Virus record (IMG/VR): IMGVR_UViG_3300044548_000117
From: a virus
Direction: 5' to 3' (one strand)
DNA length: 8,045 nucleotides
In this document: piece by piece, positions 128-8,045 of the stretch
How the letters are laid out: every line of letters begins with the position of its first letter
How positions within the stretch are numbered: position 1 is the first letter of the stretch
The notes under the pieces: generated by a model
Databases searched by the model: none
What the model was told of the DNA's origin: nothing
The model's input: only the letters and a program-made list of their open reading frames with translations
Made by a program: the position numbers and the translations under genes

Positions 128-1453
128 GTCGACTCGCCGACTCTGGTCGTTGACCTGGAGTCGCTGGGTGTTCGCATGCGGTCTTCGGGTGGGCTGACCA
201 AGCGGGAGGAGGGTGGTTACGACGTCGAAGACCTGTCCCATGCCTGGGAGTCCTTGCCGTCGAGCTACACGCCCATGGCCTTCAAGGTGTTCCACCAGAG
301 TCTAGGCAAGCGCCTCGATCCTGGCGTTGAGCTGAAAGCCAGCCCGGCGAAGCTGCTCCAGGGGCACAACGTGTTCGGCCCAACCTCGATCCGGAAGGGC
401 GCCGAGGTGATGCTGAAGTGGCTGGCCGGCTCCTACCCGGACCTTTGGGCCAAGCTCGATGTTCTGTCGATCGAGGTGTACGCCTTGGACTGCACGTTCT
501 CGGCACGCATGCCGAACGAACAGACCGCGCTCCAGGTGATCCAGTTCATGCGTGGCGTCAGCAACGGCCAGACACGCAACCGCGGTGACGACTACGAAAC
601 CACCGCCTACTGGGGCGCCAAGGATGGTCGTCTCCGCAAGATCAAGGCGTACCTGAAGGGGCCGGAGTTCCAGCGTCAGCTGGAAGAGGTCAAGAAAGCC
701 GCTCGCGGCGCTTCGTCGAACCCGGAGCCCCGGGATGACCTGGACAACGCCCACGTCCGTGCCTGGAAGGTGCTCAAGCGTGAGGCCCGTTGCGCCATGT
801 CCCATCTGTCAGCCGCTCGGACTCTACGGGTCATGCAGGACCCACGGCTTCAGGAGTTCGCCAGGCTTCTTCTTCGCCTTGAGGCGACCGTCATGCACCG
901 CTGGCTGGAGCGTCGGAATCTGCCGACGAACCTGTGGGAGTTGTGTGACTACCAGGAGGCGCTCCGCGACCAGGAGCGCTGTTTCATCCAGGAATGTTGG
1001 AGCGCAGTGACTGGCGAATTGTTCGCGGCCTTTGAGGGTATGACCATGAAGCGAATTGACGATGAAAAAGTGCTGGCCGCACTGATCGAGAAGTACACGA
1101 AGGTAGGGAAGGGGAAGTGGACCAAGGCCCGGGCAGACAAGGCAACTGGGACCATCATTCCGCCGATGTTCGTGCCGGGTAAGGCGAGTGATGCCCAGGC
1201 CCGCAACCTGTTCCGCACGTACCGCAGCCTGAAGGACTACGGCTGGGAAGAGACCATGGCGTCGATGTCCCGTGCGTCGTTCTACCGACATGTTGCCGAC
1301 CTGGAGGCCGTGGGCATCTCCAAGGCCATGCTGCAGAACCTGAAGGACTACGACAACACGCGCAACGTGGTGCCGATCCTGCGGCTCCTGGAGGTCGATT
1401 TCAGCGCCCAGGTGCCCGACTGGTACGTCGAACCCAGCGTGGAGGCCGCGTGA
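47..1453 (+). CDS. gII: Replication initiation protein, Ff pII family (rolling-circle nickase)
   Basis: The 468-aa ORF has blocks colinear with Ff (M13/f1) pII as I recall it: SHAWESLPSSY, ELKASPAKLLQGHNVFGP, LDCTFSARMPNEQTALQVIQFMRGVSNGQT and the C-terminal NVVPILRLLEVDFSAQVPDWYVEP. The start is ambiguous. Options are TTG 47, in-frame GTG 65 (AGGGA at 52-56, 8 nt upstream, giving MLDRIHMFIRF, which lines up with the Ff pII N-terminus) and ATG 83. Confidence 0.92.
   Translation: MTGISPVLDRIHMFIRFRREHVQMIGKVDSPTLVVDLESLGVRMRSSGGLTKREEGGYDVEDLSHAWESLPSSYTPMAFKVFHQSLGKRLDPGVELKASPAKLLQGHNVFGPTSIRKGAEVMLKWLAGSYPDLWAKLDVLSIEVYALDCTFSARMPNEQTALQVIQFMRGVSNGQTRNRGDDYETTAYWGAKDGRLRKIKAYLKGPEFQRQLEEVKKAARGASSNPEPRDDLDNAHVRAWKVLKREARCAMSHLSAARTLRVMQDPRLQEFARLLLRLEATVMHRWLERRNLPTNLWELCDYQEALRDQERCFIQECWSAVTGELFAAFEGMTMKRIDDEKVLAALIEKYTKVGKGKWTKARADKATGTIIPPMFVPGKASDAQARNLFRTYRSLKDYGWEETMASMSRASFYRHVADLEAVGISKAMLQNLKDYDNTRNVVPILRLLEVDFSAQVPDWYVEPSVEAA
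1046..1453 (+). CDS. gX: Nested in-frame pX-like product (C-terminal 135 aa of pII)
   Basis: An internal ATG at 1046 (another at 1040) follows GAGGG at 1034-1038. The product starts MKRIDDEKVLAALIEKY, the position where Ff pX starts (MNIYDDSAVLDAIQSKH, from memory). This call is an analogy, not a demonstration. Confidence 0.5.
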   Translation: MKRIDDEKVLAALIEKYTKVGKGKWTKARADKATGTIIPPMFVPGKASDAQARNLFRTYRSLKDYGWEETMASMSRASFYRHVADLEAVGISKAMLQNLKDYDNTRNVVPILRLLEVDFSAQVPDWYVEPSVEAA

Positions 1454-1671
1454 TGCTTAGCGCCCATCTGCACAGGCTCCACAGGAGCCTCACCAAGCTA
1501 CGTTACTGCCCTGTTTCCGAGCGTGCTTTTCAGTTGGGCTTTGTGTCCGGTTTGCTCTCGGGCTACCTGGAAGCCGCCCTGATCGAGTTCGACGTTTACG
1601 AGCGCCTTACTGCTCTCAAGCTGAACGCCTGGGAGCACTGCCTTCGTGACTCCCAAGGGGAGGGTGCCTGA
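1450..1671 (+). CDS. Hypothetical 73-aa protein
   Basis: Its ATG overlaps the pII stop (GTGATG), which suggests translational coupling. It has the same orientation and compact spacing as its neighbours. I recognise no motif. Confidence 0.5.
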   Translation: MMLSAHLHRLHRSLTKLRYCPVSERAFQLGFVSGLLSGYLEAALIEFDVYERLTALKLNAWEHCLRDSQGEGA

Positions 1672-1913
1672 TGAAAGCGCCCCTCCGTTTTGCATTCGGC
1701 TGGGTGGTGTACCTGGCCATTACGGCCGCTCTGACGCCGATTCTCAAGGCCCTGGTGGATGCCTTCCAACTCATGCCGATCTGGCTTGTGGTGGTGATCC
1801 TGGTTGCCTCCCTGGCCGCCTTCTTGGCCACGTTCTTCTTGCTCCTGCGCCGGTTCTGGTCCTGGTGCGATCAACCCCGAAAAGCTACCCGTGAGGTTCC
1901 CCCATGTTCGTGA
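1671..1913 (+). CDS. Small integral membrane protein (80 aa, two hydrophobic segments)
   Basis: The ATG overlaps the upstream stop (TGATG) and GGGGAGGG lies 6-7 nt upstream. The segments FAFGWVVYLAITAALTPIL and IWLVVVILVASLAAFLATFFLLL look like TM helices. Confidence 0.6.
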   Translation: MKAPLRFAFGWVVYLAITAALTPILKALVDAFQLMPIWLVVVILVASLAAFLATFFLLLRRFWSWCDQPRKATREVPPCS

Positions 1914-2239
1914 AAATCGGCCTGTGCAAAGGCACGTCTGTCAAAGAATCCCGCAACGGCTTCCAGGAACACTACGTCCTGGTCAGCGGCGAGAGTCAGG
2001 ACCAGTTCGGCCAGGTGGTCGAGGTGACTACTGGCATTCGCCTGTCCAAGGGGCAGCTCGACGCCGGCCTGCGCGATTACTACGACACGCTGAAGGGCAA
2101 GCAGGTGTGCGTGCCCTGCTACAACCGGCCGTGGAAGTCCGCTGGCGGCACTGTCGGCATGGACACGTGGCTGTCGAACGAGAACGGCGGCAAGCCGGTT
2201 CCCCTGGTCACCCAGCAGCAGCTGAAGGCTACGGGCTGA
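1904..2239 (+). CDS. Probable ssDNA-binding protein (gV analogue)
   Basis: GAGG lies 7 nt before the ATG. The ORF sits between the pII and coat genes, as gV does. It is a small soluble protein that looks beta-rich, and its N-terminus (KGTSVKESRNGFQEHYVLV) resembles inovirus gV/SSB N-termini. The assignment rests on position and loose resemblance only. Confidence 0.5.
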   Translation: MFVKIGLCKGTSVKESRNGFQEHYVLVSGESQDQFGQVVEVTTGIRLSKGQLDAGLRDYYDTLKGKQVCVPCYNRPWKSAGGTVGMDTWLSNENGGKPVPLVTQQQLKATG

Positions 2240-2248
2240 GTGTGACCG

Positions 2249-2461
2249 ATGAAGTACCTGGTCTGTGATGGTGATTGGCTGGTGGACGAGAGCGGGCTTG
2301 CCCGGTGCTCTGGCCAGCTGACTGCCATGACAGTGCAGGACGCGGGGAGCTTGGGCTCCCTGACGCCTGAGGAGCGCAAGGAGCTGCAGGATTACACCAT
2401 CGGTGTGTTCTTCGCGGTGTTCTGCGTCCTCGCTCTGAAGAAGCATCTGAGTACCAACTGA
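2249..2461 (+). CDS. Small protein (70 aa) with a C-terminal hydrophobic anchor; possible minor virion or membrane protein
   Basis: The ORF lies directly upstream of the major coat gene. The C-terminal YTIGVFFAVFCVLALKKHL is TM-like. The SD is weak. Confidence 0.5.
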   Translation: MKYLVCDGDWLVDESGLARCSGQLTAMTVQDAGSLGSLTPEERKELQDYTIGVFFAVFCVLALKKHLSTN

Positions 2462-2478
2462 CCTGGAGGGTCGCCAAC

Positions 2479-2706
2479 ATGAAATACATGAACGCTGTGA
2501 AGAAGTATGGCCGCAAGGCTCTGGTCTCCGGCGGCGCCATCGCCGCTGGTGTGGGCGGTCTGGCGATGCAGGCTTACGCCGAGCTGCCGGCATCCATGAC
2601 CACCGACGCCGCGTCGGCCAAGTCGGACAGCAACGAGCTGGGCTACCTGGTCCTGGGCGTGCTGTTCGGTATCGCGGCTCTGCGCTGGCTGCGCCGCGCG
2701 ATGTAA
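2479..2706 (+). CDS. gVIII: Major coat protein precursor (pVIII-like)
   Basis: GGAGGG lies 8 nt upstream. The 34-aa leader ends in AYA. The predicted 41-aa mature peptide has an acidic N-terminus (ELPASMTTDAASAKSDSNE), a hydrophobic core (LGYLVLGVLFGIAAL) and a basic C-terminus (RWLRRAM). This is the classic inovirus coat layout. Confidence 0.85.
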   Translation: MKYMNAVKKYGRKALVSGGAIAAGVGGLAMQAYAELPASMTTDAASAKSDSNELGYLVLGVLFGIAALRWLRRAM

Positions 2707-2712
2707 CAGGGG

Positions 2713-2736
2713 AGGAGGGGGCTTAGGCCCCCTCTT
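2713..2736 (+). terminator. Stable GC hairpin just after pVIII (possible partial terminator or attenuator)
   Basis: A 10-bp stem pairs 2713-2722 with 2727-2736 (AGGAGGGGGC / GCCCCCTCTT, one G-T pair) around the loop TTAG. The downstream T tract is poor. Confidence 0.4.
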
Positions 2737-2827
2737 ACTTCATGACCTACGAAATGTACTGGCTCGCGGTAAACGTGTTAGCGGCGTTGCTGATCTTGTT
2801 CGGTCGGTTATAGCGTCAGGTTGAATT

Positions 2828-2852
2828 AAAGGCCCCTGACGGGGCTTTTTTT
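2828..2852 (+). terminator. Rho-independent terminator between pVIII and pIII
   Basis: The sequence is AAAGGCCCC-TGAC-GGGGCTTTTTTT: a GC stem (2832-2836 / 2841-2845), a 4-nt loop and a run of 7 T. Ff phages also terminate after gene VIII. Confidence 0.8.
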
Positions 2853-2869
2853 ATTTTGAGAGGCTAGTT

Positions 2870-4147
2870 ATGCGGGCTATATTGATTTTGCTTTTATTTT
2901 TAATGCCCCCATTGTCCGCTTACTCGTCTGAGTACATTTGGACTACTACCAGCTGGTCTGGGAATACTTACTCCGGCCCTAGTCCCTTTTCTGCTTGCGC
3001 TCAGATTCCTTATGATAATCAGTTTGTCTTTGATCACTTGGATAGGATTTCTGACACACAGTTCCGATGTGTCGCTCTGCGGGTGTCTGATGGCGCAATT
3101 CACTCCGGCATGTCTGCGATTAGATCTGGTGATTCATGCCCTTCCGGTACTGTATTTAATGGCCTTACTGGTGTTTGTGATCCTCCAACTGATGGAGAGT
3201 GCCTGGCTAAAAGTTCATATACGAAAACCATTCAGTATTCATTTGCTGATGGTTCTGCTGTTTTTGGTCTCGGTGCAGATATTAAGGATGGTTGCATTTA
3301 TGAGCCCGGAGAGCCGAAGAACTGTACGGACACACAATGCGAAGTTGAAATGAAGCCGGTTGGTAATAACGTCATGTCGGATAACTCCGGCAACCCTGAC
3401 CAAGATCTTCAGGATTATCTGGACGAACTGGCAAAGCAGTTCAAGTGCGAGCATGTGGCCAATGGAACTGTTGGTTGTTCGGCTGCTGAGACTACGCCGC
3501 CGGATATCGATCCTGACGACAAGTGCCCGGATGGCTATTCCTGGTCAGGCACTGCTTGCTTCCCCACGAATGGCGGTGGGAACGAGAACCCCGATAACCC
3601 GACGCCTGGTGGTGATGGCGGCTCTTCTGGCGGCGGCAGTACCGGCGGCAGTGGCGGGGATGGCGGCAGTACCGGCGGCGATGGTAGCGGCGATGGCTCC
3701 AGCGGTGGCGGCGGAGGTGGTAACGACGGTGACGATGGTGACGACAAGGAACCTGGTGTTGAGGGTACGGCTTGTGACAAGGCGTTTAAGTGCACTGGCG
3801 ATGCCGTTAACTGCGCGATTGCTGAGCGCCAGAAGAATGCCTATTGCGAGAACAAGGAACTCCAGGATGCACAAAAAGGTTTCGACAAGATTGGCGAGGA
3901 AATAGGCCAGGAGAAGTACACGATGCTCGATGGCGGCGATGTAGATATTGGTTCGCTGTTTGGTGAAGGCACTCGGTTCTTGCCTTCGGCATGCCCGGCG
4001 ATTTCAACAACAACACTGCATGTAGGGCCTCTCCAGTTTAACTGGCAGCCGGTCTGTCAGTACGCCGAGCTGGTTGGAAAGTTCCTTGTCGCCTGGGCAT
4101 CCCTGTTCTTTGCAACGTATGTTGGTCGCGCCTTTGGAGGTGATTGA
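2870..4147 (+). CDS. gIII: Minor coat / adsorption protein (pIII-like)
   Basis: GAGAGG lies 6 nt upstream. The protein has a signal peptide (MRAILILLLFLMPPLSAYS), Cys-rich N-terminal domains and a long Gly/Ser/Asp linker (GGDGGSSGGGSTGGSGGDGGSTGGDGSGDGSSGGGGGGNDGDDGDD). A C-terminal hydrophobic anchor (FLVAWASLFFATYVG) completes the pIII architecture, and the gene sits after pVIII as gIII does. Confidence 0.85.
   Translation: MRAILILLLFLMPPLSAYSSEYIWTTTSWSGNTYSGPSPFSACAQIPYDNQFVFDHLDRISDTQFRCVALRVSDGAIHSGMSAIRSGDSCPSGTVFNGLTGVCDPPTDGECLAKSSYTKTIQYSFADGSAVFGLGADIKDGCIYEPGEPKNCTDTQCEVEMKPVGNNVMSDNSGNPDQDLQDYLDELAKQFKCEHVANGTVGCSAAETTPPDIDPDDKCPDGYSWSGTACFPTNGGGNENPDNPTPGGDGGSSGGGSTGGSGGDGGSTGGDGSGDGSSGGGGGGNDGDDGDDKEPGVEGTACDKAFKCTGDAVNCAIAERQKNAYCENKELQDAQKGFDKIGEEIGQEKYTMLDGGDVDIGSLFGEGTRFLPSACPAISTTTLHVGPLQFNWQPVCQYAELVGKFLVAWASLFFATYVGRAFGGD
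3632..3691 (+). repeat. Tandem 30-bp repeat inside the Gly-rich linker of pIII
   Basis: GGCGGCAGTACCGGCGGC occurs at 3632-3649 and again at 3662-3679. The two units encode GGSTGGSGGD and GGSTGGDGSG. Confidence 0.7.
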
Positions 4148-4149
4148 TT

Positions 4150-4455
4150 ATGTGGTTCTACTATGCGTTTTCGTTTTTGAGCTTCGTGCTTATTCCGCTG
4201 GTGAACATGGTGCTTCGCGCCTTGGGCATTGGCGTAATGAGCTATATCGGAATCAATCTGGCAATTAATGCCGCCAAGGATCACTTGATTGCAGCCCTTG
4301 GCGGAATGCCCATCCAAGTTCAGCAAATTCTTGGCCTGGCCAATGTTGATGTTGCGGTGAACATTGTTCTTTCCGCAGTGACCACCCGGTTCATCTTGAA
4401 CGGCGTTAACAAGCTCAGTGGTCGCAAGAAAAAGTATGGCGTCTTGGAGGCTTAA
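4150..4455 (+). CDS. gVI: Minor coat / membrane protein (pVI-like)
   Basis: GGAGGTG (4135-4141) lies 8 nt before ATG 4150; the ORF track starts at TTG 4144. The 101-aa product is hydrophobic and multi-TM, and sits between pIII and pI as in Ff. Confidence 0.75.
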   Translation: MWFYYAFSFLSFVLIPLVNMVLRALGIGVMSYIGINLAINAAKDHLIAALGGMPIQVQQILGLANVDVAVNIVLSAVTTRFILNGVNKLSGRKKKYGVLEA

Positions 4456-4458
4456 CGT

Positions 4459-5709
4459 ATGGGCTCGCCACTGAACTTGGTTACTGGTCTTCCTGGCAAT
4501 GGCAAGACGCTTAACACGATCAAGGAAGTAGATGCGCAGGCGGTTAAAGAAGGCCGGCTTGTGTACTTCCACAATATTCGCGGCCTTAAGCCCGAGCTGC
4601 TTAAGGCGGAATGGTACGAGTTCGAGGACCCGCATAAGTGGTTCGAACTGCCCGAGAACAGTCTGATCGTGGTGGATGAGGCCCAGGGCTTTTTCCCGCC
4701 CAGGGACATTCGCAAGCCGGTTCCCGAGTACTGCTCCAAGATGGAAACCGTGCGCCATGAGGGACGCGAGCTGTGGCTAATCACCCAGCACCCCAGCTTC
4801 ATTGACGTGCACGCTCGCCGGTTGACCAACCGGCACATCCATTTCAAGCGCATCTTCAAGTCGTCGCGGATTTTGCGGCACGAGTGGGAAGGGGTGTCCG
4901 ATGTCGACAAGGCCAGCTCGTTCAAGGCGGCCATGACGACGCCTATCAAGCTCGATAAGAAGTTCTTCGACGTCTACCAGTCCACGGCCCAGGGGGCTTC
5001 GCATTTCTTCAAATTCAAGGCGCCTCTGGCCCTCTATGCGCTGCTTCTCTGCCTGGGTGTGGTGGCCGTCTTCGGGTATCGGTTCTATCAGCGTTATCAG
5101 GAGAAGGTGGGCGCCCACGATGCGCCTACTGAGCAGCAGGCGCTGCCCTCGGGCGCTGCTGTGCTGGGATCGGTGGTGGATGCCGTGGCGCCGGAATCGG
5201 TGAAGGGCAAGGGCAAGCAGACGCTGCAGGAGTACCTGGCCGACCGGACGCCACGGATTGCGTCCGTGCCGTCGTCGGCGCCGATCTACGATGAGCTGAC
5301 CAAGCCCGTCAGCTTCCCGCGCACATACTGTGTCTCGACGACCAATGAAACGCTTCTGGAGCGCAACAGCGTGCGTAGCCGCATGAAGGTCGGTTGGCAC
5401 CATGGGAAGAAGACTGGGTGCGGGTGTTACACCCAGCAAGGCAGCCAGGTGCAGACGACTTTCGAGTACTGCATGAACGCGGTGGAGAATCGGTTCTTCG
5501 ATCCAACGCTGCCGGATCATGGCAGCCAGCAGGTGGCCTCGTTGCCACAGCCGCCAACCGCTGGCCTCGTCGCAAGCGGAAGCGACGTAGGAGCACCGCG
5601 CGACGTGTCCAGCGGCGCGCCGCTGGCTTCAGCGACCGATGGCGGTTTCGGCGGCACGCGCCTTACGATCGTGCCTGACAGCGAATACCCGTCGAGGCCG
5701 TGGAGGTGA
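4459..5709 (+). CDS. gI: Assembly ATPase pI / Zot-family protein
   Basis: GGAGG lies 8 nt upstream. The protein has a Walker A motif GLPGNGKT at aa 10-17, a Walker B-like LIVVDEAQ, one central TM segment (APLALYALLLCLGVVAVFGYRFY) and a Cys-containing C-terminal domain (GCGCYTQQG). This is the typical Zot/pI layout. Confidence 0.92.
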   Translation: MGSPLNLVTGLPGNGKTLNTIKEVDAQAVKEGRLVYFHNIRGLKPELLKAEWYEFEDPHKWFELPENSLIVVDEAQGFFPPRDIRKPVPEYCSKMETVRHEGRELWLITQHPSFIDVHARRLTNRHIHFKRIFKSSRILRHEWEGVSDVDKASSFKAAMTTPIKLDKKFFDVYQSTAQGASHFFKFKAPLALYALLLCLGVVAVFGYRFYQRYQEKVGAHDAPTEQQALPSGAAVLGSVVDAVAPESVKGKGKQTLQEYLADRTPRIASVPSSAPIYDELTKPVSFPRTYCVSTTNETLLERNSVRSRMKVGWHHGKKTGCGCYTQQGSQVQTTFEYCMNAVENRFFDPTLPDHGSQQVASLPQPPTAGLVASGSDVGAPRDVSSGAPLASATDGGFGGTRLTIVPDSEYPSRPWR

Positions 5710-5825
5710 TGATGGATGTGTGGATGGTGTTGACCGTGCTTCTGGTCGTTGTGGTGGGCACGGTGTTCGCCGGCTTGGCCGGCTTCGGCATGATGCAGGC
5801 GTGGGCGAGTCGTGGCGATGACTGA
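5709..5825 (+). CDS. Hydrophobic micro-ORF, 38 aa (MMDVWMVLTVLLVVVVGTVFAGLAGFGMMQAWASRGDD)
   Basis: This ORF is below the ORF-track size cutoff. Its ATG overlaps the pI stop (TGATGATG), with GGAGG at 5702-5706 (5 nt before the second ATG at 5712). It contains one clear TM-like segment. I translated it by hand. Confidence 0.4.
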   Translation: MMDVWMVLTVLLVVVVGTVFAGLAGFGMMQAWASRGDD

Positions 5826-5913
5826 CCTTACGTGGTGGCAGGCGGCTTTGGTTGTTGTTCCTGGAGTAATCCTGTTTGTGGTCGGCTTGGCTCGGGAGAT
5901 CCGTCACTGGTGA
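5818..5913 (+). CDS. Hydrophobic micro-ORF, 31 aa (MTDLTWWQAALVVVPGVILFVVGLAREIRHW)
   Basis: The start overlaps the end of the preceding micro-ORF (GATGACTGA). It has a single TM-like segment with flanking aromatic and basic residues and no strong SD of its own. I translated it by hand. Confidence 0.35.
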   Translation: MTDLTWWQAALVVVPGVILFVVGLAREIRHW

Positions 5914-5920
5914 ACCCTAG

Positions 5921-5948
5921 GCTTCGCATAATGTATATGGCGTTACGT
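5921..5948 (+). other. dif-like XerC/XerD recombination site 1 (candidate attP half)
   Basis: The site reads GCTTCGCATAA-TGTATA-TGGCGTTACGT. Against E. coli dif (GGTGCGCATAA-TGTATA-TTATGTTAAAT) the XerC arm matches 9/11, the central region 6/6 and the XerD arm 6/11. Confidence 0.7.
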
Positions 5949-5986
5949 TGAGCGGCGTGCGGAACATGGCCACGCCTCCGCGCGTC

Positions 5987-6014
5987 GCGTAACGTAATGC
6001 CCATTATGCGAACG
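5987..6014 (-). other. dif-like site 2, inverted relative to site 1
   Basis: The reverse complement reads CGTTCGCATAA-TGGGCA-TTACGTTACGC. Against dif the XerC arm matches 9/11, the central region 3/6 and the XerD arm 7/11. Site 2 shares TTCGCATAAT and CGTTACG exactly with site 1. Confidence 0.6.
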
Positions 6015-6242
6015 CCCGTGCCTCTCGAAATTCCGCCTCATCTGGTCGACCTGGCCACCTTGTATTCCCCATCCCGCGATCCTCTCGATGCCGTTTGTTA
6101 CGTCCTGCAGGCCTACCCGGAGCTGGTGGGCGATCTGCGCAAGCTGCGCCGCCGAGTCGCCCAACTGGACGAAGAGGGCGCGCTGCTGGACGAGCGCCTG
6201 GCGAAGCTCCAGGCAGCTTGCCGGGCGATACTCGATCTGTAG
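5997..6242 (+). CDS. Small DNA-binding-like protein: possible ribbon-helix-helix N-terminus plus C-terminal coiled coil (81 aa)
   Basis: VPLEIPPHLVDLA resembles an RHH beta-strand/helix start. The C-terminal LRKLRRRVAQLDEEGALLDERLAKLQAACRAILDL is heptad-like. There is no convincing SD. The stop TAG (6240-6242) abuts the first GCTAGC palindrome. The architecture parallels ORF 6454-6747. Confidence 0.45.
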   Translation: MPIMRTPVPLEIPPHLVDLATLYSPSRDPLDAVCYVLQAYPELVGDLRKLRRRVAQLDEEGALLDERLAKLQAACRAILDL

Positions 6243-6440
6243 TGCTAGCGTTTTTCGTTCTGCAGTTGCTGCACCAGGTCGAGATTTGCTAGCACCTGGC
6301 GGATCTGCCTGAAGGCGCCCTGCTAGCATTTCGCGTCCTCGATCGGCGCCGGCGCCGATGAAATTGCTAGCAATCGTCTCGATGGGAGTGCTAGCATTTT
6401 TGCACCTGGTGGATCTCGTCCAGGATCAAATTTGCTAGCA
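6242..6440. repeat. Array of six perfect GCTAGC palindromes (core of TGCTAGCA) in the 211-bp gap between the two RHH-like ORFs
   Basis: The cores lie at 6244-6249, 6288-6293, 6322-6327, 6366-6371, 6390-6395 and 6434-6439, spaced 44, 34, 44, 24 and 44 bp apart. Site 4 is a 12-bp perfect palindrome, ATTGCTAGCAAT (6363-6374). Site 6 abuts the SD of the downstream ORF. Confidence 0.9.
6342..6359. repeat. 18-bp perfect palindrome ATCGGCGCCGGCGCCGAT
   Basis: The sequence equals its own reverse complement. It lies between GCTAGC sites 3 and 4. Confidence 0.9.
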
Positions 6441-6453
6441 GGGAGAAAGTGGA

Positions 6454-6747
6454 ATGCTGCTGACCATTCGCGATGTGCCCGAAGACCTGGTGCGCCAGGC
6501 AAAGATTGCGACCGGCAAAGGTACTGGGAGCCAGGCGTTTATCGCCGGCATTGAGCTGATGCTGTGGCAGCGTGATCGCATCGACGAGATGCAGGAAGAG
6601 ATTCGCTCGCTGCGCGAGACCGTTGGTGTCTACCAGGGCGTGCTTGCCGATGCTCATTCGGCCGCTGTTCAGCTCGCCGAGATCGCCGGGCAGAAGGACC
6701 TTTTCCAGTCTGAGAACCCGCTGCGCCCCGGGTATCGTCGCCGCTAG
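6454..6747 (+). CDS. Ribbon-helix-helix-like DNA-binding protein with a C-terminal coiled coil (97 aa)
   Basis: GGGAG lies 8 nt upstream. MLLTIRDVPEDLVRQAKIATGKGTGSQAFIAGIELML fits the RHH pattern of beta-strand, helix A, G-x-S/T turn and helix B. It is followed by the heptad-like RIDEMQEEIRSLRETVGVYQGVL. The stop TAG (6745-6747) lies inside GCTAGC site 7. Confidence 0.7.
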   Translation: MLLTIRDVPEDLVRQAKIATGKGTGSQAFIAGIELMLWQRDRIDEMQEEIRSLRETVGVYQGVLADAHSAAVQLAEIAGQKDLFQSENPLRPGYRRR

Positions 6748-6838
6748 CAGTTTTCGCGCACCAGCTGCTGCACCGCGGCTGATTTTGCTAGCACTTTTGC
6801 CTGCAGGTTTCGTCCTGGATCCGACTGACTGCTAGCAA
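6741..6838. repeat. Array of three further GCTAGC palindromes downstream of the second RHH-like ORF
   Basis: The cores lie at 6743-6748, 6787-6792 and 6831-6836, spaced 44 and 44 bp apart. The first unit is homologous to the unit after ORF 5997-6242: both carry TTTTCG..TGCTGCACC..GATTTGCTAGCAC. Confidence 0.9.
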
Positions 6839-6841
6839 CTC

Positions 6842-7087
6842 GGAAGCCCCTTCGCGGGGCTCCGTCGTTCCCGGCGCTCCGAGCACACCTCGCGCCTGAT
6901 CACCCCAATTGCGCGTACAGCGGCCTTCCAGGGGCCTCTGTACGTGCGCGCACGTTGTGCTCGCAGACTTCCGAGGAATGTTCAGCCGTCTAGCCCAGCT
7001 GGTGGAGAGCGCGAAGCATTGGCCCTGCGGGCCAACGGGTAGCCGGAAGGCGCAGGGCGGAGCCCTGGCGGAAGGAACGAATGTTCC
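6842..7087 (+). other. Hairpin-dense GC-rich non-coding segment; candidate packaging signal and/or minus-strand origin, or a structured RNA
   Basis: I found five stem-loops by hand: 6842-6863; 6911-6947 (10-bp outer stem plus inner GGCC/GGCC); 7019-7035 (TTGGCCC-TGC-GGGCCAA); 7053-7067 (CAGGGC-GGA-GCCCTG, flanked by direct CGGAAGG repeats); and 7074-7087 (GGAAC-GAAT-GTTCC). There is no credible ORF. The functional assignment is by analogy with the Ff intergenic region. Confidence 0.4.
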
Positions 7088-7135
7088 TGGAGGGTAAGGC
7101 CGGCTTGCAGCGGGGCGGGGGTAGGCCGGAGGCCG

Positions 7136-7157
7136 CAGGGGTTCACCCCTGGTTTTT
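7136..7157 (+). terminator. Rho-independent terminator (plus strand)
   Basis: The sequence is CAGGGG-TTCA-CCCCTG followed by GTTTTT. On the minus strand no T tract follows the hairpin. Confidence 0.7.
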
Positions 7158-7415
7158 AGATGCCTCCGGCGCTGCCTTGGGTATGACTCCACGGCAGTAG
7201 ACCAGGTAGTTCTTGTCCGTCTTCCTAGTCGCTTTTTCTGCGGCCGCCATGGCTTTTCCTGCGGTGGTGCACGCCTCTTTCGTGGGGTAGGGGGTGTGCA
7301 CCGTAATTACAGTGGTAGGCGTCGGGTTGCTCTGGAGCAGGATTGTCAGGATGTATTCGAGGGTCACTGCCGCTCCATGGCTTTTTGGGGCTGCGCGGAG
7401 TGTCCGATAGCGCAC
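7143..7415 (-). CDS. Hypothetical small protein (90 aa from GTG 7415; 74 aa from GTG 7367)
   Basis: This is the only sizeable ORF in the interval. The internal GTG at 7367 has GGAG 5 nt upstream. I recognise no motif, and the C-terminus reads through the plus-strand terminator hairpin, so the call is weak. Confidence 0.3.
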   Translation of the reverse strand: MRYRTLRAAPKSHGAAVTLEYILTILLQSNPTPTTVITVHTPYPTKEACTTAGKAMAAAEKATRKTDKNYLVYCRGVIPKAAPEASKNQG

Positions 7416-7430
7416 TCCCGGCGGCAGCCG

Positions 7431-7473
7431 GGTCCACCATCTCTAATGGTGGACTCTTGTCTCATGGTGAGAA
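7431..7473 (+). promoter_or_regulatory. Plus-strand (rolling-circle) origin with an Ff-like nick-site hairpin
   Basis: GTCCACCAT-CTCTA-ATGGTGGAC forms a 9-bp stem (7432-7440 / 7446-7454). TCTCTAATGGTGGACTCTTGT matches the f1 origin TCTTTAATAGTGGACTCTTGT at 19/21, and GTGGACTCTTGT (7449-7460) is identical. A second inverted repeat, TCTCA-TGG-TGAGA (7460-7472), sits where the Ff pII-binding inverted repeat lies. By analogy the nick falls between T7444 and A7445. Confidence 0.8.
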
Positions 7474-7491
7474 TTTCCGATCATTTTTTGA

Positions 7492-7926
7492 TCAGCGCAG
7501 CGCTTCCTGCTCGTAGCCGTACAGAACGCCTTTTAGGGCGATTCGTGCTTGGTTTCTGATCTCGGCGGGCAGCGCATCAAACCTCTTGAGTATGGGTCTC
7601 AAGTCCTCGGATACGGTCATTTCTTCGCTGTCCAGCAGCAGCTCGTCGGTGGTTACGCCGAGCACCTTTGCCATGGCGACGACCTTGTCAGCCGATGGCA
7701 TTGCCGTGCCAGCTTCGTAGGTGCTGTAGGTTGATTTGCCGATGCCAGCAGGGCCCCAGACTTCAGGCATCGTGAGGCCTCGGCCCTTTCTGATCCGCTT
7801 TAGGTTCTCGCCAAGCGTCATAGCTCTCTCATGCGCGGTCTTCATGGTGGCGAGATCGTAGGTACTGTTCACGCATACAGCTCCAGCATTCTGGCATTTG
7901 ATTGCTTGCATGTTGTAATGCTCCAT
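7492..7926 (-). CDS. XRE/Cro-CI family helix-turn-helix transcriptional repressor (phage immunity-type regulator)
   Basis: LGENLKRIRKGRGLTMPEVWGPAGIGKSTYSTYEAGTAMPSADKVVAMAKVLGVTTDELL is a typical XRE HTH domain. The gene is transcribed divergently from pII. The start is uncertain: ATG at 7926, 7911, 7845 or 7821, where 7821 gives MTLGENLKR, a typical HTH N-terminus. The ORF runs into the terminal repeat. Confidence 0.85.
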   Translation of the reverse strand: MEHYNMQAIKCQNAGAVCVNSTYDLATMKTAHERAMTLGENLKRIRKGRGLTMPEVWGPAGIGKSTYSTYEAGTAMPSADKVVAMAKVLGVTTDELLLDSEEMTVSEDLRPILKRFDALPAEIRNQARIALKGVLYGYEQEALR

Positions 7927-8045
7927 TGCTAGATTACCGGCATTCGCATTCCTGATTTCAGGTATTGACAGGGATTTCGCCGGTGCTTGATCGAATCCAC
8001 ATGTTCATCCGCTTTCGCCGGGAGCACGTCCAGATGATTGGCAAG
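7919..8045. repeat. Terminal direct repeat, copy 2 (identical to 1..127)
   Basis: See copy 1. It contains the repressor start region and the 5' end of pII. Confidence 0.97.

Follow-up and report, generated by a model that had tools for sequence, protein, structure and literature searches.

How does a small filamentous phage that encodes no integrase enter the chromosome of its host? The question is raised by the IMG/VR record IMGVR_UViG_3300044548_000117, a stretch of 8,045 nucleotides that was analysed over its full length (the window), and within it by two inverted sequences that resemble the bacterial dif site. The window is a small circular filamentous phage (inovirus), whose host is probably Pseudomonas. 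Positions 1-127 are an exact 127-nt terminal repeat of 7919-8045, and since the ends repeat exactly the contig is circular, with 7,918 bp; the circular assembly represents either the phage as an episome or replicative form, or else a tandem array that has collapsed. A preliminary description of the sequence had proposed a CTXphi-style attachment site (attP) here, folded on the packaged strand and used by XerC and XerD, two recombinases of the host. Our results bear this reading out, and we consider it highly probable that positions 5920-6016 are the attachment site of an integrase-less filamentous phage that borrows the host XerC/XerD by the CTXphi mechanism. The evidence consists of two unequal inverted sites, a + strand hairpin that covaries among relatives, a position in the genome like that of the CTXphi site, the junctions of related prophages at dif and the lack of an integrase: Pfam searches of 20 open reading frames (ORFs) of the window, long antisense ones included, identified no integrase or other recombinase, as had been stated before.

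The sequence TTCGCATAATG occurs exactly twice in the window, at 5923-5933 on the + strand and at 6002-6012 on the - strand, and the two copies are the core of its longest inverted repeat (25 nt, 80% complementarity, arms 5923-5947 and 5988-6012). In site 1, this sequence comprises the XerC-binding arm TTCGCATAA (5923-5931) and the first two bases of the centre, TG, and it makes up the 5' side of the XerC-arm stem; XerC would cut after 5931. The centre that follows, TGTATATGGCG, has 11 nt (5932-5942, + strand), as judged from the folds and from the spacer survey described below. Its first six bases (5932-5937) are the dif centre TGTATA, so that the site reads TTCGCATAA TGTATA, as noted in the preliminary description; 5934-5938 are unpaired in the fold and 5939-5942 pair with 5998-6001. 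The XerD arm of site 1 had been judged poor. We find a usable one, TTACGTTGAGC, displaced by 5 nt, at 5943-5953 on the + strand, identical at 9 of 11 positions to the CTXphi attP1 arm TTATGTTGAGG; it is the register with a 5-nt bulge that makes this arm usable at 11 nt, instead of 6, from the XerC arm. Site 2, on the other strand, reads TTCGCATAA TGGGCA TTACGTTACGC, that is, the same XerC arm (6004-6012, the 3' half of the XerC-arm stem) with the diverged centre already described. This centre has 6 nt (5998-6003) and is, in relatives, either conserved or covarying with the tail of the site 1 centre. The XerD-like arm of site 2 (5987-5997, - strand; 9 of 11 positions shared with the CTXphi attP2 arm TTATGTTACGG) forms a duplex with 5943-5953 that includes one G.T pair (5950/5990) and is interrupted by a mismatch (5951/5989). 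At positions 8-10, where the CTXphi arms depart from the dif consensus TTATGTTAAAT, both XerD arms do so as well, site 1 having GAG and site 2 having ACG. The TG ends of the two sites are separated by 68 nt, and the hairpin extends distally on the + strand (5952-5988), 5952-5963 being paired with 5977-5988, with compensatory changes in relatives, around an apical loop (5964-5976) that holds a 3-bp mini-stem.

Folded as single-stranded DNA, the + strand of 5915-6020 forms this long hairpin with -37.6 kcal/mol (z = -8.2), a stability reached by none of 200 shuffled sequences, whereas the fold of the complementary strand is weaker (-31.1 kcal/mol, z = -4.4). The minimum-energy fold contains the perfect 11-bp pairing of 5923-5933 with 6002-6012 that had been predicted. 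Above it, the pairing previously proposed has to be revised. Instead of a 3-nt central mismatch (5934-5936/5999-6001), the fold and the comparative data support a 5-nt bulge in the 5' arm (5934-5938, TATAT), and instead of an inner helix of 5941-5947 with 5988-5994 they favour 5939-5950 with 5990-6001, followed by a 1x1 mismatch (5951/5989) and by the pairing of 5952-5963 with 5977-5988. The latter extended stem takes the place of the local GGCGTG/CACGCC stem (5954-5959/5971-5976), which is unsupported.

The comparative data come from eight alignable hairpins, those of the window, L003, L121, L124, L251, L215, P. gregormendelii (L167) and Pseudomonas sp. S30 (L178). On these, the revised main helix is 94.3% paired with 13 compensatory pairs, the 5941-5947/5988-5994 helix is 76.8% paired with zero compensatory changes, and the local stem is 61.7% paired, four of its pairs having a compensatory change. 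The consensus fold has 37 pairs, 16 of them with compensatory changes, and 94.9% of the cells are paired. Shuffles give 83.0 +/- 1.3%, none of 500 being as high as the real alignment, and sliding the partner strand lowers the figure to 32-42%. The tail of the long centre covaries with the short centre, reading GGCG/GGCA in the window, GACG/GACA in L251, GGGA/GGGA in a second P. aeruginosa-type lineage and CGGT/CGGT in L121, and the 5-nt bulge differs among relatives (TCCAG, ACCTC, ACGAT). These data also decide whether the second dif-like site might be a chance match or a functionless relic of an inverted duplication. In GC-rich phage genomes, short inverted repeats are nothing unusual, and the window has ten others; however, about 0.12 matches to TTCGCATAATG are expected by chance where two are observed (two or more appeared in 1 of 200 shuffles), and the z-score of the fold, the 16 compensated pairs and the recurrence of the two-site design in more than 100 distinct inovirus contigs all speak against such an origin. 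We regard it as extremely unlikely, and as effectively refuted by the match statistics and the covariation.

Is the site used at dif? The preliminary description suggested looking for prophages there, and relatives of the window are found in this position (L003/L265, L263, L253, L266 and L215), one junction regenerating dif and the other keeping both phage sites. One of them, L003, whose contig is also that of L252 and L265, shares 97.8% identity with window 1177-5938 and represents a linear prophage cut open precisely at site 1. The right junction is a perfect dif, TTCGCATAA|TGTATATTATGTTAAAT, the phage end being ...aaccctaggcTTCGCATAA|TGTATATTATGTTAAAT; the sequence reads ...tgaaccctaggcTTCGCATAA TGTATA TTATGTTAAAT and continues into the host flank. 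Compared with the dif of P. aeruginosa PAO1, GATTCGCATAATGTATATTATGTTAAAT (PMC2731167), this right-end site corresponds to bases 3 to 28. At the left end, a foreign flank is followed by TTCGCATAA|TGTCCAGGTG TTACGTT..., the hairpin and site 2. L253, L263 (8.0 kb) and L266 share with L003 the right end at dif and the host flank, the junctions of L003/L265, L263 and L266 lie at the boundary between XerC arm and centre of site 1, and the variant with a TGTCCA centre has integrated at the same dif three times. A further relative, L215, is a complete prophage on a 44-kb contig of a Pseudomonas sp. metagenome-assembled genome, with the hairpin at its left end (1022-1107), gII at 2005-3201, Zot at 6487-7788 and dif, as TTCGCATAA TGTATA TTATGTTAAAC, at its right end (~7841). 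All prophage junctions of the relatives are at site 1, as cleavage of the + strand by XerC predicts.

The closest phage in GenBank is NEU2023 (PQ144888), a 7,067-bp P. aeruginosa inovirus whose gII shares 84% nucleotide identity with that of the window. Its public record annotates no attachment site; it too bears a two-site hairpin after zot, with TTCGCATAA TGACCTCGGCG TTACGTTACCT and CTCGCATAA TGGGCA TTACGTGTAAA. It differs from the window in that DNA similarity is confined to gII and ~80 nt near 7416-7495, and in its longer hairpin (109 nt between arm ends). This type is present as prophages and arrays in isolate-derived IMG/VR contigs, and its attPs show several different flanks directly 5' of TTCGCATAA and a constant sequence 3' of it. 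Arrays are represented by four attPs ~7.07 kb apart on the isolate-derived IMGVR_UViG_2912953232_000005, by two attPs on L099 and by a mixed array in L003. The left-flank DNA of L003 (1-230), L263 (1-234) and L266 (1-117) ends ...cttatccatgac before TTCGCATAA, while L264 has an intact TGTCCAGGTG attP with its own phage end before it. Since these left flanks resemble the end of a NEU2023-like phage, different Xer-exploiting phages form mixed arrays at one dif.

Some of these relatives deserve mention for other reasons. Positions 118-2340 of L266 (Ga0180219_1026653) are a 2.2-kb mini-element at the same dif, with the L003 hairpin attP and the small gene that follows it (88.7% over the first 1 kb). 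Nothing in it resembles gII or the morphogenesis genes found in the window, L003 or NEU2023, and it is possibly a satellite like the RS1 of CTXphi. L251 (683-781) has an identical coat protein and a different attP, in which site 1 is TTCGCATAA TATCGTGACG TTACGTTAAGT, with a centre that starts TA and not TG, and site 2 is CGCATAA TGGACA TTACGCTAAAT. L263 joins a window-like gII (95.6%) to NEU2023-like structural genes. These phages exchange modules with one another.

How closely does the element follow CTXphi? Like the window, CTXphi has two inverted dif-like sites on its replicative form and encodes no integrase. On its packaged strand (the ctxB coding strand, as read from a CTXphi record) the long-centre site also comes first and the short-centre site follows in inverted orientation, and the attachment site likewise lies between the morphogenesis genes and a divergent repressor. 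Both CTXphi and the relatives of the window occur as prophages at dif, with dif regenerated on one side, and in arrays. The attP(+) of CTXphi is reportedly, after the work of Val et al. in 2005 (reviewed in PMC3089051, PMC4246890 and PMC3442271), a forked hairpin of attP1 and attP2. One of these reviews gives attP1 as AGTGCGTATTA TGTGGCGCGGCA TTATGTTGAGG and attP2 as AATGCGTATTA TACGCCA TTATGTTACGG (centre GGGGCA in the G variant), ~90 bp apart (PMC3089051). The centres of CTXphi have 12 nt in attP1 and 5-7 nt in attP2 (PMC3089051, PMC4246890), as compared with 11 and 6 nt in the window, and besides the identity of 9 of 11 positions in each XerD arm, both elements have a G.T pair and a mismatch at arm positions 8 and 9. 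With the folding tool used for the window, the CTXphi attP gives an XerC-arm stem, a 5-nt bulge in the 5' arm, a partly paired tail, an XerD-arm stem with one mismatch and a forked apex. There are also differences: the hairpin of the window has ~98 nt and a single extended stem, in contrast with ~150 nt and a forked apex in CTXphi; the XerC arms are of the Pseudomonas dif type (TTCGCATAA) in the former and of the Vibrio type (GCGTATTA) in the latter; and the centre of site 1 is a complete dif hexamer, TGTATA, while that of CTXphi shares only 1-3 bases with dif. The window, which is known from its sequence alone, further differs in its gII/Phage_CRI-type replication protein and in having no toxin genes.

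Elements of this design were also surveyed in phage contigs and genomes. A 20-nt probe for site 2 recovered 16 IMG/VR loci and one genome contig. A more general probe, CGCATAATG N65-95 CATTATGCG, matched at least 119 loci of viral contigs, the bulk of these contigs being of inovirus size, and 120 in genomes, many of the latter being chance matches; from the collection size, an 18-base pattern is estimated to give ~270 chance matches in the genome scan. Chance matches were removed by demanding XerD-like arms on both sides, which 125 of 207 non-redundant inverted pairs possess, nearly all of them asymmetric. The long centres of these 125 have mostly 9-13 nt (mode 11) and the short ones mostly 5-7 nt, and the two differ by 4-6 nt in 65 of 77 distinct stems. 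The long-centre site lies on the gII strand in 86 of 86 cases and on the Zot strand in 91 of 93. Over 121 elements, the + strand folds better in 76 and the - strand in 39 (Wilcoxon p = 2.7e-8). Of 20 stem positions, 12.56 match between true partners and 9.79 +/- 0.19 between permuted ones, and position 4 of the XerD arm (C or T) is the same in both sites of all 77 stems. Where stem positions are not identical, 180 form G.T pairs on the + strand and 54 are A.C mismatches, the equivalent of G.T pairs on the - strand. Finally, 58 of the 77 long centres and only 5 of the 77 short ones start TGT, like dif, a bias that is the prediction of the CTXphi compatibility rule for the strand exchanged by XerC (PMC4246890). 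We take these counts as supporting evidence, short of proof, for the use of the + strand. Carriers of the two-site design are found in Pseudomonas, Moraxella, Pasteurellaceae, Enterobacteriaceae (for example L139 of Lelliottia and L201 of Enterobacter), Aeromonas, methanotrophs and other groups.

A cluster was seen in Moraxella osloensis, where CP069437 carries, at 408-432 kb (L161, L164, L169), four copies of an 85-nt two-site hairpin, with the sequences TGTGCA TTATGTGTAAA and TGTCCGCG TTATGTTCA, within ~24 kb; three of the copies are ~0.4-1.7 kb apart. Possibly this is an array, at dif, of tiny elements or of remnants.

Could site 1 act by itself as a duplex, with site 2 and the hairpin serving another purpose? 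Phages of the VGJphi, TLCphi, phiLf and Cf1c types use one dif-like site as a duplex, integrate reversibly with the host XerCD and encode no integrase, and TLCphi requires an activator with a DUF3653 domain. The exchange would be started by XerC in a mechanism of the VGJphi type and by XerD in one of the TLCphi/phiLf type. This is the strongest of the rival explanations, and several observations weigh in its favour or count against the CTX-type reading. The XerC arm and complete dif centre of site 1 in the window, TTCGCATAATGTATA, are identical to the duplex attP core of phiLf and resemble that of Cf1c; in the Xanthomonas phages phiLf, phiLf-UK and phiLf2 this is a 15-nt core, TATACATTATGCGAA, on the other strand. 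A duplex site 1 would likewise place the prophage junctions there, so that these are no proof of a single-stranded substrate. No prophage with the window's own centre, TGTATATGGCG, was found in one metagenome scan, the junctions being those of close relatives, and the host flank next to attR was unmatched in two exact scans that covered one genome per species. The survey statistics, moreover, are inflated by the shared ancestry of the phages, and the probe itself fixed CGCATAATG (XerC arm plus TG) on both arms.

Other observations speak against a duplex site 1. The centres of site 1 in relatives are not those of dif, being TGTCCA in L003, L263, L264 and L266, TATCGT in L251 and TGACCT in NEU2023, and phages with TGTCCA are still integrated at dif. 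VGJphi-type phages have a single site with normal arm spacing, whereas the window has two inverted sites and an XerD-type motif in site 1 that is 11 nt, not 6, from the XerC arm; such an extended centre, as that of CTXphi attP1, has been reported to make a site unsuitable as a duplex (PMC4246890). The TLCphi/phiLf type shares the dif-identical centre with site 1 of the window, but no DUF3653 activator or Xaf-like factor was identified among the 20 window ORFs with Pfam, and relatives without a dif centre use the same dif. The conservation of site 2 and its covariation with site 1 also speak against it, as do an orientation that is fixed with respect to the packaged strand and the G.T bias towards the + strand. 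Because of the integrated relatives that have no dif centre, the covariation, the fixed orientation and the lack of an Xer activation factor, we disfavour a duplex site 1 and judge it unlikely. Neither of the two sites is expected to work as a duplex. A mixed arrangement can be conceived because site 1 of the window, unlike that of its relatives, holds the whole dif centre (TTCGCATAA TGTATA T), as in phiLf and Cf1c: its attP might combine irreversible CTX-style integration of single-stranded DNA with reversible duplex recombination with dif, and the small gene next to site 2 (phrog_13909) might be an attP-linked helper or switch. This dual mode seems to us a rather improbable one.

Alternatively, the chief role of the hairpin could be to signal packaging or to act as a complementary-strand origin, like the intergenic hairpins of the Ff phages, its likeness to dif being secondary. 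Ff packaging signals are hairpins of a similar kind, and that of the window is long, conserved, specific to the + strand, non-coding and placed directly after the morphogenesis genes. Its conserved stem parts, however, are exactly the XerC and XerD arm sequences at a spacing typical of dif, and prophages end exactly within it, beside a regenerated dif. Xanthomonas phages that integrate at dif have their mapped packaging signal in a separate hairpin of 20-26 nt near the origin, in or near gII, and for this reason we give the packaging reading less weight and hold it to be very unlikely as the main function. The hairpin might still have a role in packaging or replication besides attachment.

We propose that, similarly to CTXphi, the phage integrates through its packaged single strand. 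The two inverted dif-like sites would fold onto each other and form an XerC-arm duplex (5923-5933/6002-6012), a bulge (5934-5938), a paired tail (5939-5942/5998-6001) and an XerD-arm duplex (5943-5953/5987-5997). This pseudo-dif would be bound by XerC and XerD and paired with the chromosomal dif. XerC would then cut the phage strand after TTCGCATAA (after 5931) and the top strand of dif and exchange them, the exchange being stabilised by the TG(TATA) that both have next to the cut; the bulged, non-homologous centre would block a second exchange by XerD, so that XerC alone would catalyse the reaction. Replication would turn the junction into a prophage. At its left end, the host XerC arm would be followed by 5932 onward, both phage sites being masked in duplex DNA, and at its right end the sequence up to 5931 would be followed by the host centre and XerD arm, with a working dif regenerated. 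Since the phage sites would be masked and dif regenerated, integration is expected to be irreversible, and new phage may arise from the replicative form or from tandem arrays.

To our knowledge, CTXphi is the only phage for which experiments have shown that its single-stranded DNA integrates directly at dif; for two enterobacterial phages this has been inferred. The window contains a genuine CTX-type attP(+) in a Pseudomonas-type inovirus; the mechanism is already known and the example is new, in that the CTX device, with its unequal centres and 5-nt bulge, is now found in this lineage. No CTX-type attP in Pseudomonas inoviruses was found in the literature, a search of incomplete coverage that is weak evidence. 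The features that define the CTX class have been described, with RS1, Ypfphi and CUS-1phi listed as relatives (PMC4246890, PMC3442271), and for CUS-1phi of E. coli O18:K1 and Ypfphi of Yersinia pestis attP features for direct single-stranded integration at dif were reported (PMC4246890, PMC3442271). These are, like the window, members of the class from outside Vibrio, with a different host group and different sequences, and we liken them to the window by their description. The recurrence of the device in well over 100 distinct inovirus contigs suggests that it is common. It gives exact borders for small prophages, which are poorly delimited by prediction tools, offers an explanation of mixed prophage arrays at dif, and is a source of natural variants on which the rules of Xer hijacking can be tested.

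What would integration mean for the gene at site 2? The preliminary description placed site 2 over the start codon of an ORF from 5997. The gene is real: it is a small conserved gene (6006-6242, + strand) with a full-length match to phrog_13909 (E = 3.9e-34), and compared with L003 it has 30 synonymous and 18 non-synonymous codon differences (12/10/40 over the three codon positions). Its start conserved in relatives is the ATG inside the XerC arm, CATTATGCGA, which is 6006 in the window; the ATG at 5997 is a second one, in frame and upstream. On integration the gene and site 2 stay intact, and only the DNA upstream of 5923 is replaced, so any effect on the gene would come through its upstream context. 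In NEU2023, it is a - strand gene that ends with the TAA of the corresponding XerC arm instead.

The rest of the genome is that of a standard inovirus, with the usual gene set on the + strand as identified with Pfam: the rolling-circle replication initiator gII (47-1453; Phage_CRI and G2P_X_C), a G5P-like single-strand binding protein (1904-2239), the major coat protein (2479-2706), a gIII-like protein (2870-4147), a DUF2523/gVI-like protein (4144-4455) and the Zot/gpI assembly ATPase (4459-5709; PF05707), the last large morphogenesis gene upstream of attP. The location of Zot/gpI on the + strand implies that this is the coding and packaged strand. Downstream of attP, a divergent helix-turn-helix repressor (7492-7926, - strand; Pfam) occupies the position of rstR in CTXphi, and the gene order, zot, attP, the repressor on the - strand and the replication gene, is that of CTXphi. 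The attP region of the window also occurs, in circular permutation, in L250 (Logan SRR16378462). An exact look-up of the coat protein retrieved metagenome contigs only and no isolates. When the host was sought through Zot among representative genomes, the search returned only relatives of 44-47%, in Stutzerimonas and P. songnenensis (L259, L260, L261). Their loci have no dif-like site and are therefore uninformative on the attP of the window; these phages evidently integrate in another way.

Two other features of the window were noted. Its G+C content is 0.46-0.52 at 2750-3500 and 3750-4500, that is, in the gIII-like gene and its surroundings, compared with ~0.60-0.64 elsewhere, and the gIII-like gene has glycine/serine-rich repeats at 3607-3717; the low-G+C stretch may mark a module for host recognition that is exchanged horizontally. 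Between attP and the repressor, a direct repeat of ~52 nt, bounded by GCTAGC...TTTGCTAGCA, occurs three times (6244-6295, 6390-6441 and 6743-6794), with the palindromes or inverted repeats CCCTGCTAGCA (6318-6328 and 6433-6443) and ATTGCTAGCA (6363-6374) close by in the same interval, and these may be operator or regulatory repeats.

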